Sequence record: PQ536907.1
Reading direction: 5' to 3' (one strand)
Source of the DNA: a phage
DNA: 64,000 nucleotides
Below, in pieces: positions 40,257 through 42,739 of this stretch. The position numbers were made by a program, and so were the translations under genes. Within the stretch, counting starts at the first letter, position 1; each line of letters begins with the position of its first letter. Under the pieces are notes generated by a model. The model ran no database searches. It was not told where the DNA came from and was given only the letters and a program-made list of their open reading frames with translations.

Positions 40257-40406
40257 TTACTGCATGACTGTGATAACTGTCATGATAACACGTTGAATGC
40301 CGAACGCAAGAAGACCTCCTGCTACGGCTGGAACAACACCTACCCCCGCTAGTAAAATGCCGCCAGATACTAATGCAGCGCTTGTAATACCAATGAATGG
40401 ACTCAT
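40257..40406 (-). CDS. small hydrophobic ORF (49 aa), below ORF-track cut-off
   Basis: Manual translation MSPFIGITSAALVSGGILLAGVGVVPAVAGG...; ATG overlaps gene 52 stop. Confidence 0.35.
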   Translation of the reverse strand: MSPFIGITSAALVSGGILLAGVGVVPAVAGGLLAFGIQRVIMTVITVMQ

Positions 40407-41731
40407 TTGATTTCCTCTAAATCTTTAGTGTATTCTGTAACTACATCAGTAGTTTTCCAATATTCGTTTTCTTCTTTTTTAGCTTTAGCTTCTTCAGCAA
40501 GTTTCTTTGCTTCATCAGAAGTCATATGAAAAATATTCATTCCAACTAGTTTATCAACATAAGAAGAATACATCTCAATTTTAGAAAGTTCTTCGGTCAG
40601 TTCTTTACGAGTTTTACCCTGTACAACAATTTCACCTGAAATTACTTTCTTAATGAAATGCGCCTTGGCAAAGGCTAAACGAAATGCTGATTCAGTTTCT
40701 TTGATTTTGTTATCAATTCGTTTTTGGACATAAGTTTTACGAACTTCAACGAAGTCTTTGATTAAATCAACTACGTTATCGTAAACTTGTAGCTTTCCTT
40801 TCTCATTAATAACCGTAATATTCTGAGAACGACGCTCAATCAACCCGAAGTCTTTCATAATTTTTGCATGGCGTTCTTCTTCATTATCGCTCAAAGAATA
40901 TTCTTTACGGAATTTAACTTTAAAGCCAAAACCATGCTCACCACAAGCATCATCCCACGTAATGAAGCCTTTATCTTCAAGTGGGTCTAAGATTTTACTC
41001 ACATAAGTTTCACGATCATACTTATACGGAATCTCAGTGATATGCATTTGAGTTCGTGAAGTAAACTTGTATGTTCCACGAATTTCATATTGCCCATCAA
41101 TCTCAACGACTTCACCACGAAATTCTGGGAATTCTACCTTCGGTTTAGTTACTTTCTTTCCTTGAAGAGCTTGCAGTACAGCTTTCTTGACAGAAGAAAC
41201 ACTATGAGGAAGAATGTAAGTTGCATAACCAGTTGCAATACCGGAAACACCATTAAGAAGAACAGTAGGAATAATAGGCAAATAGAAAGCAGGCGGAATG
41301 TGTTCTTTATCTTGATGTACTGGAGCATATTCAGTATCTTTATATACGTTATAGAAATTTTTACTTACACGAGCAAAAATATAACGACTAGCTGCTGCCT
41401 TTTGGACAGTACGAGAACCAAAGTTTCCTTGACCATCTAACAAAGGAAAGTTATTATTCCAAGTGTTAGCCATCAAAGCACCTGCGTCTTGCGCAGAGTT
41501 TTCACCATGATGATATCCAAGGTCTGCTACACCGCCTGCAATAGAAGCGAGTTTGTGAAACTTATCTTTATTTCCTCGTGCCAAATCAAGAGCTCGAGCA
41601 ATAACAAATCGTTGAACTGGCTTAAATCCATCAATCATATTTGGGATAGCACGATTTTCAACCGTGTACATAGCATAAGCCAATGCTTCATTATCAATGA
41701 TACTTTTTAAATCGCGATTATTCAGTTGCAT
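40403..41731 (-). CDS. 52: gp52 DNA topoisomerase II medium subunit (GyrA-like)
   Basis: 442 aa; topo IIA DNA-binding/cleavage-type sequence with Tyr region; matches recalled T4 gp52. Confidence 0.95.
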   Translation of the reverse strand: MQLNNRDLKSIIDNEALAYAMYTVENRAIPNMIDGFKPVQRFVIARALDLARGNKDKFHKLASIAGGVADLGYHHGENSAQDAGALMANTWNNNFPLLDGQGNFGSRTVQKAAASRYIFARVSKNFYNVYKDTEYAPVHQDKEHIPPAFYLPIIPTVLLNGVSGIATGYATYILPHSVSSVKKAVLQALQGKKVTKPKVEFPEFRGEVVEIDGQYEIRGTYKFTSRTQMHITEIPYKYDRETYVSKILDPLEDKGFITWDDACGEHGFGFKVKFRKEYSLSDNEEERHAKIMKDFGLIERRSQNITVINEKGKLQVYDNVVDLIKDFVEVRKTYVQKRIDNKIKETESAFRLAFAKAHFIKKVISGEIVVQGKTRKELTEELSKIEMYSSYVDKLVGMNIFHMTSDEAKKLAEEAKAKKEENEYWKTTDVVTEYTKDLEEIK

Positions 41732-41735
41732 AAAT

Positions 41736-41876
41736 TTACCATACTAGTGAATGTAGTGCCATAATAACATCAGAAATGAAAAGCACGACTTGAATTAATC
41801 CGAACATTACTCCATAATATAGTGCTACCAATAAAGTAGCAAGGGCTAATGAATAGCCCAAGATTTTCTTAATCAT
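41736..41876 (-). CDS. small hydrophobic ORF (46 aa), below ORF-track cut-off
   Basis: Manual translation MIKKILGYSLALATLLVALYYGVMFGLIQVV... Confidence 0.3.
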   Translation of the reverse strand: MIKKILGYSLALATLLVALYYGVMFGLIQVVLFISDVIMALHSLVW

Positions 41877-42027
41877 TAGTAGATAACAACACAAATGTTA
41901 AATATGCACACATACCCTGGGCTAAAGCTTGTGAAAACACACTGCTAGCATCGATACAGATAGTTAAAACACATGCTACTATCCAACAAATAAATGAAAT
42001 AACTCCTAATAATTTTGCGATATTCAT
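41869..42027 (-). CDS. Ac-like small membrane protein paralog (52 aa)
   Basis: MNIAKLLGVISFICWIVACVLTICIDASSVFSQALAQGMCAYL... is clearly paralogous to the downstream 51-aa ORF. Confidence 0.45.
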   Translation of the reverse strand: MNIAKLLGVISFICWIVACVLTICIDASSVFSQALAQGMCAYLTFVLLSTND

Positions 42028-42037
42028 AATATTCTCC

Positions 42038-42193
42038 TCAACTATTTTTAGAACCAATGTACGCGAATAATGATAAAATCGCTAATACGCCCTGAGCTGA
42101 TGCTTGCAAAAATACTGAAGTTTCTCCGGTTATTACTGTTCCGATGCATAAAAAGAACCAACAGAAAAAGGCTATACCGTGAACAAATTTCAT
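42038..42193 (-). CDS. ac: probable Ac (acridine sensitivity) small membrane protein, 51 aa
   Basis: Manual translation MKFVHGIAFFCWFFLCIGTVITGETSVFLQASAQGVLAILSLFAYIGSKNS; 51 aa, immediately upstream (in coordinate) of stp as in T4. Confidence 0.5.
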   Translation of the reverse strand: MKFVHGIAFFCWFFLCIGTVITGETSVFLQASAQGVLAILSLFAYIGSKNS

Positions 42194-42200
42194 ATTTTCC

Positions 42201-42281
42201 TCACTGGCGTCCGAAGACGCCTTTGGTTTTAAGATTGTTACGATAGAACTGCATCACATGTTCGTTATGGAAATTACTCAT
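42201..42281 (-). CDS. stp: Stp peptide (26 aa), activator of host PrrC anticodon nuclease
   Basis: Manual translation gives [26 protein letters not shown], matching recalled T4 Stp; not in ORF track. Confidence 0.75.
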
Positions 42282-42739
42282 TAATATGCCTGCAAAACAA
42301 ATTTAAAGTTATCAGCCAACATACGGTTCATTTCTTCAAGTGTTTGATACTCAGAATGATGATTACGAGTAAACGCTAAAGCTAACTGTCCTTTTCCAAA
42401 TCCCGTCGTCAAAGGTTTCATCTTAGAAGCAGGCAGATAAAATACTGTGTATGGAACATTGTTATTTGCAATAGTACGTGCAAGTTGAGACCGGCGTTGA
42501 CGAATATGACTTAGAACTGCACTGAATCCTTGCTTAGAACGCTGATTACCTACATAAAATCGTGCAGACACACATGGATTACTAAATGGACGACCATCTA
42601 ATTTACACACTAAAAAGTAAAATCCAGGTTTAGATAAAATATCTTTATGCGGAGTTCCCAAAAACCACTCACCACCCTTGATTGTACCAATAACAGTAGC
42701 GCCTGCATTGTTCAGATCAGTAACAGTCATGTATTTCAT
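42281..42739 (-). CDS. ndd: Ndd nucleoid-disruption protein
   Basis: About 152 aa from internal Met [18 protein letters not shown]... Confidence 0.85.

Follow-up and report, generated by a model that had tools for sequence, protein, structure and literature searches.

The window, the whole 64,000-nucleotide stretch of phage DNA that we analysed, carries two adjacent, very short hydrophobic open reading frames (here ORF-A and ORF-B) directly after stp, at a locus where T4 has a single copy of the acridine-sensitivity gene ac. This raises the question of whether the two are true duplicates, which of them corresponds to ac, how the pair came about, and what a second copy might do. Across bases 41600-42400, the match to Escherichia phages vB_Eco_Geo and TB37 is 100%, and several hundred Tequatrovirus records match at 95-99% identity; the source is a Tequatrovirus (a T4-like phage) in which the two lineages of the Phage_T4_Ac family stand side by side.

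Two Ac-family genes between stp and gene 52

The tandem lies on the minus strand within the early gene string ndd-stp-ac-52.1-52. Read along that strand, ndd (42281-42739, 152 aa) is followed by stp (42201-42281, 26 aa), whose translation is identical to annotated T4 Stp, which activates the anticodon nuclease PrrC of the host. Stp is separated by 7 nt from its downstream neighbour ORF-A (42038-42193, 51 aa, beginning MKFVHGIAFF), and ORF-A by 10 nt from ORF-B (41869-42027, with its ATG at 42027; 52 aa, beginning MNIAKLLGV). The end of ORF-B overlaps the start of gene 52.1 by 8 nt (41736-41876, ATG at 41876; a 46-aa membrane protein), and 4 nt separate 52.1 from gene 52 (40403-41731, 442 aa). 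A GAGGA Shine-Dalgarno box is found 4-5 nt upstream of the ORF-A ATG and another 7-8 nt upstream of that of ORF-B. This layout of three short frames on one strand bears out an earlier note on this DNA, which had described tandem paralogous small membrane proteins beside stp.

Scanning the region for promoters and terminators gave matches at background level only. One element picked up by the terminator-like scan, and also visible in the sequence by eye, is a GGCGUC-UUCG-GACGCC hairpin with a UUCG tetraloop (42206-42221, minus strand), which occupies the final codons of stp, immediately ahead of the Shine-Dalgarno box of ORF-A, and may have a role in mRNA stability or processing. The hairpin is kept in T4, RB14, RB32, ECO78 and Shfl2, and in RB68 with one stem substitution; in T6 and TOPO13 a deletion has removed it.

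ORF-A and ORF-B are true paralogs. They are 43% identical over 40 aa (BLASTP, E = 6e-10), and their alignment scores 85 by Smith-Waterman, where the best of 20,000 composition-preserving shuffles scores 66, so hydrophobic bias is not the cause of the match. Both frames also match the whole of phrog_2501 (E = 4.9e-26 for ORF-A, whose residues 1-50 align with the 50-position profile; E = 3.7e-25 for ORF-B), in agreement with the earlier assignment to the ac (acridine-sensitivity) family, and PF26944 (Phage_T4_Ac) is recorded in the precomputed annotations of three close homologues (P0004, P0007 and P0009). The possibility that these are chance reading frames is ruled out by their conservation, their Shine-Dalgarno boxes and their family profile matches.

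The 46-aa frame had been placed beside the pair as a third hydrophobic ORF; it is indeed present, but it is not related to the other two. It encodes gp52.1, matching Pfam DUF7396 (PF24129; E = 3.5e-23, residues 1-46 of the 46-position profile) and phrog_3595 (E = 1.2e-25) and differing from T4 gp52.1 at one residue. Tried as a third paralog, it scored at shuffle level against both ORF-A and ORF-B and was rejected.

As to which copy is ac, the earlier note had favoured the 51-aa one, an assignment that our comparison reverses. ORF-B differs from T4 Ac by a single inserted Thr, all 51 T4 residues being identical, and it is 100% identical to RB14 Ac. In T4 and RB14, stp is followed directly by ac and then by 52.1, and that ac aligns with the 52-aa ORF-B; the 51-aa ORF-A instead lies on an extra 166-bp segment (~42029-42194, minus strand) that is absent from both genomes, the flanking sequence being otherwise near-identical in the three-way DNA alignment. 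The segment was delimited from this alignment together with an eight-way one and a comparison of junctions. ORF-B is thus the T4 ac orthologue, and the 51-aa length common to ORF-A and T4 Ac is a coincidence. Like T4 Ac (gene ac, 51 aa; PF26944; phrog_2501), ORF-B sits directly upstream of 52.1 and overlaps it. ORF-A resembles T4 Ac in family, length, predicted two-helix shape and invariant residues, including the Gly changed in the G38R mutant discussed below, but it is only 43% identical to it and has TGETS in the turn where T4 Ac has IDASS. Because the edges of the indel lie where the Shine-Dalgarno/start sequence is repeated (TGAGGAAAATATGAA at 42203-42189 and TGAGGAGAATATTATGAA at 42040-42023), its boundaries are ambiguous by a few nucleotides.

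The Ac family is small, and its members with examined context all come from T4-like phages. A word-index protein search returned 7 close relatives only, and an exhaustive profile search of 1.84 billion representatives returned 6 short Ac-family representatives; two further profile matches, to short repeated stretches in very long proteins, were judged spurious. In the records examined, the family's place between ndd/stp and 52.1/gene 52 is conserved, and the tandem fits it. An alignment of 11 sequences (from Tequatrovirus, Mosigvirus, Jiaodavirus and two metagenomic T4-like contigs) yields six invariant residues, W, T, V, Q, Q and G (T4 W15, T22, V30, Q33, Q37 and G38), all kept in both ORFs; in ORF-A they are W12, T19, V27, Q30, Q34 and G35, the last corresponding to T4 G38.

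Distribution and history of the two lineages

ORF-A, the extra copy, belongs to the type of ac found in RB32, RB68 and RB69. It is 71-76% identical to the single-copy "ac" of RB32 and RB68, and the RB32 annotation itself calls its ac "more similar to RB69". Genes of this type share with ORF-A the stp/Shine-Dalgarno start junction and the core TGETSVFLQA-AQG; however, the RB32/RB68 gene ends in KND* and overlaps 52.1, whereas ORF-A has KNS* at its end, with a further Shine-Dalgarno box and a T4-type ac downstream. A-like single copies also occupy the ndd-to-52 slot in Mosigvirus HX01, in Jiaodavirus KP1079 and in a more distant metagenomic T4-like contig. This A type is the only ac in RB32, RB68, Shfl2 and the Mosigvirus and Jiaodavirus phages, and the T4 type (B) was seen only in Tequatrovirus-like records—a distribution from which A looks like the older and more widespread form and B like a derived one. 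One metagenomic protein is intermediate between the two: P0009 (locus L012, 912-1064; Logan SRR8048111) combines an A-like turn, TGES, with a B-like second helix, TCAYLTF, and is encoded by a single-copy gene adjoining a 52.1-like gene. This allele is relevant to the question whether duplication or allelic divergence gave rise to the T4-type Ac.

Related phages are found in all three states—A, B and tandem—across Tequatrovirus records, so that conservation of these small frames in relatives is borne out. A query spanning the tandem junction was covered to at least 80% in 51 of 501 matching records, and an independent search with P0009 found two Ac places in 49 records. Among sequenced relatives, ~10% carry the tandem, ~80% B only and roughly 10% A only. 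The tandem carriers belong to several named species, and among them are phages named for Escherichia, Shigella, Yersinia and Citrobacter. The identical records vB_Eco_Geo and TB37 label the pair "Acridine resistance (x2)", and ORF-A is labelled "Acridine resistance" in the identical record OZ034685.

Other genomes carry traces of a former tandem. In T6 (L008, AP018814, 532-618) and TOPO13 (L009, 532-618), the stretch equivalent to window positions 42023-42281 encodes a 28-aa hybrid Stp, which agrees with T4 Stp over its first 18 residues and whose tail, NFGILG(F/S)KNS, comes from an ORF-A-like 3' end; downstream of the hybrid gene lies sequence matching the A-B junction. Judged by its sequence, this stp fusion is a deletion remnant of ORF-A, which would mean that the tandem predates the T6 lineage. 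ORF-A thus appears to have been lost at least twice and in different ways, by clean deletion in the T4 type and by stp fusion in the T6 type; its repeated loss suggests that it is often dispensable. A second tandem variant, in T4_ev151 (L014, LR597660, 508-663), has an ORF-A 88% identical to that of the window, with all 11 nucleotide differences in the first ~65 nt of the 156-bp gene and identical flanks. The pattern indicates allele exchange, with a recombination tract within the first transmembrane helix (TM1).

The two lineages also differ in how freely they vary. Among the window phage, T4, RB14, T6 and TOPO13, the differences in the B type (up to 5) are all synonymous, whereas A-type pairs have dN/dS values of 0.19-0.59, with changes mostly in TM1 and the C-terminal tail. 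The "diversifying" function proposed for the pair in the earlier note accordingly fits the A type, with these values and its mosaic TM1, and fails for the B type, which is without non-synonymous change in five phages.

We propose that the tandem arose by unequal recombination or by duplication of a ~166-bp unit consisting of a Shine-Dalgarno box and an ac gene; the A-B junction is similar to the stp tail/Shine-Dalgarno region and also to the place where ac meets 52.1. ORF-A would later have been lost repeatedly, in T4-like genomes through clean deletion from one Shine-Dalgarno/ATG repeat to the other, and in T6-like genomes through a deletion fusing stp to the ORF-A tail. The single-copy intermediate P0009 allows capture of a foreign allele as an alternative to duplication in place, and the 166-bp indel may be either an insertion or a deletion.

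Predicted hairpins and their proposed action on the host membrane

The earlier note had described both products as single-pass peptides, which is probably wrong. AlphaFold2 models built from shallow alignments place helices at residues 2-22 and 27-50 of ORF-A (pLDDT 76) and at residues 3-24 and 28-51 of ORF-B (pLDDT 77), with a break of 3-4 residues giving a helix-turn-helix in both. The hydropathy profile is in keeping with this, each ORF having ~50 aa with two hydrophobic helices and a short polar turn, and an ESMFold description of T4 Ac in a 2025 preprint agrees on two helices with a short break. The charge distribution, with Lys at the termini and Glu/Asp in the turn, suggests that both ends are cytoplasmic.

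Functional data on the family concern the T4/T2-type Ac, that is, the ORF-B type, only. According to the 2025 preprint, T4 with an ac knockout plates on acriflavine, G38R in T4 Ac abolishes acriflavine sensitivity, the natural extra Thr (found in PP01, and also in ORF-B) leaves sensitivity unchanged, and expression of Ac sensitises E. coli to acriflavine by ~3 logs. Its authors propose that Ac raises intracellular acridine by blocking AcrAB-TolC efflux, not by increasing uptake, and a 2026 PNAS paper restates the efflux block as an assumption (PMC13250531). Given its sequence, ORF-B should act exactly like T4 Ac. ORF-A keeps every invariant residue and therefore probably shares the activity, although its partner specificity may differ, given its different TM1 and C-terminal tail.

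Following that proposal, each product would be a ~5.5 kDa inner-membrane hairpin, its ends probably cytoplasmic and its acidic turn periplasmic, with a conserved face (W...T / VFxQAxxQG) that would bind a component of the host inner membrane. One preprint puts forward the AcrAB-TolC pump as the hypothetical target; binding would lower efflux, acridines would accumulate, and phage DNA replication would be blocked. Efflux interference by a membrane hairpin appears to be the most likely mechanism for both copies. Taken as a whole, the best explanation of the locus in our judgement, held with moderate confidence, is that both Ac lineages stand in tandem through duplication or recombination and act by an efflux block.

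A likeness to a host protein is worth setting out here. AcrZ, an AcrB-binding protein of 49 aa in the E. coli inner membrane, is similar to Ac in size and location. It is, however, a single bent helix that assists efflux; Ac has two helices and would, as proposed, impair efflux. An Ac profile gave 0 matches to PDB sequences at E <= 10 and a Foldseek search against the PDB gave 0 matches; the solved structures include AcrB-AcrZ complexes. AcrZ and the Ac family show no detectable homology in sequence or fold, and the likeness is one of analogy, not of family membership. If the published hypothesis is right, both would bind the transmembrane domain of an RND pump.

The main rival to an efflux block goes back to Silver's original idea, in which the hairpins oligomerise into, or induce, an envelope leak that raises the influx of cationic dye with efflux left unblocked; in a phage with two diverged copies, the pores would be homo- or hetero-oligomers. 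Within these otherwise hydrophobic two-helix hairpins, conserved polar residues (T, E/D, S, Q and Q) speak for such a leak, and small channel-forming viral proteins likewise have polar residues within hydrophobic helices. So does early work on T2 and T4, which, as summarised in the 2025 preprint, ascribed sensitivity to higher acridine uptake after infection. Expression of Ac by itself is not reported to be lethal, however, and it also sensitises cells to ampicillin, a drug with a periplasmic target, which the preprint authors read as an efflux defect; on balance we think a leak unlikely. Far less probable still is a role for both peptides in superinfection exclusion or membrane immunity, which the earlier note had raised and for which we found nothing in support. 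The products are small early inner-membrane proteins within a cluster of membrane-protein genes, and T4 Imm and Sp are precedents for exclusion and immunity roles; yet neither ORF has any similarity to Imm or Sp, the family matches are only to Ac, and drug sensitivity is the sole documented phenotype of the family.

Whether the second copy matters to the phage is a separate issue from how either copy acts. ORF-A might be a redundant passenger, left by unequal recombination between ac alleles, that brings little or no fitness gain and is being lost. The tandem is, after all, kept in only ~10% of records and has suffered at least two independent losses (clean deletion in the T4 type, the stp::A' fusion in the T6 type), the A type evolves under looser constraint than the B type, and the tandem genomes are 98-100% identical across the region, so that the intactness of an ORF says little about selection. 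Set against this are the state of ORF-A itself, which is intact, has a strong Shine-Dalgarno box and keeps all six invariants; the purifying selection on the single-copy A type across genera; the tandem ORF-A of T4_ev151, whose different but intact TM1 represents continued allele exchange, not decay; and the presence of the tandem in phages of several named species and several hosts. We regard passenger status as possible but doubtful. At the other extreme, A and B might be non-redundant, the T4-type Ac being a neofunctionalised offshoot of the older A type and the two acting on distinct targets in the host inner membrane (such as separate efflux pumps or variants of a pump) or forming a hetero-oligomer. 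This too seems improbable to us; if true, tandem phages would affect the host envelope more broadly or more strongly, and would give rise to spontaneous acridine resistance far less often than T4.

The ac label and the neighbouring genes

The tandem is an ordinary feature, a known family in a known arrangement of which public genomes already annotate both copies. Our literature searches found no paper on tandem ac copies or on two ac lineages, and the comparative picture is thus a small addition, not a discovery; it changes little for phage biology. What it does affect is the reading of annotations. The "ac" labels in T4-like phages span two lineages that are ~43% identical, with phenotype evidence from the T4 type only, so the acridine phenotype of the "ac" genes of RB32, RB69 and Klebsiella phages is putative. 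Phages with both copies are a natural test of whether the lineages are redundant, which matters where ac serves to report forward mutation or as a counter-selection marker, and for the value of Ac to the phage.

The ndd-to-gene-52 interval is also a hot spot for the gain and loss of other small membrane-protein genes. An extra hydrophobic ORF of 35-57 aa, with an end of the form ...FER(I/L)(A/C)K/T..CGV(Y/S)E, lies upstream of stp or ac in Shfl2 (L011, 354-527), in the Klebsiella phage KP1079 (L006, 1403-1510) and in a metagenomic contig (L013, 2831-3004). The contig that encodes P0009 has a different small hydrophobic ORF in that upstream slot (L012, 720-902), and L013 carries another small ORF, similar to that of L012, downstream of its ac. 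At the upstream border of the locus, Ndd is 152 aa long here and 151 aa in T4, with a small indel and a cluster of substitutions at residues ~45-50 (CKLDGRPF here, SKLGGPF in T4).
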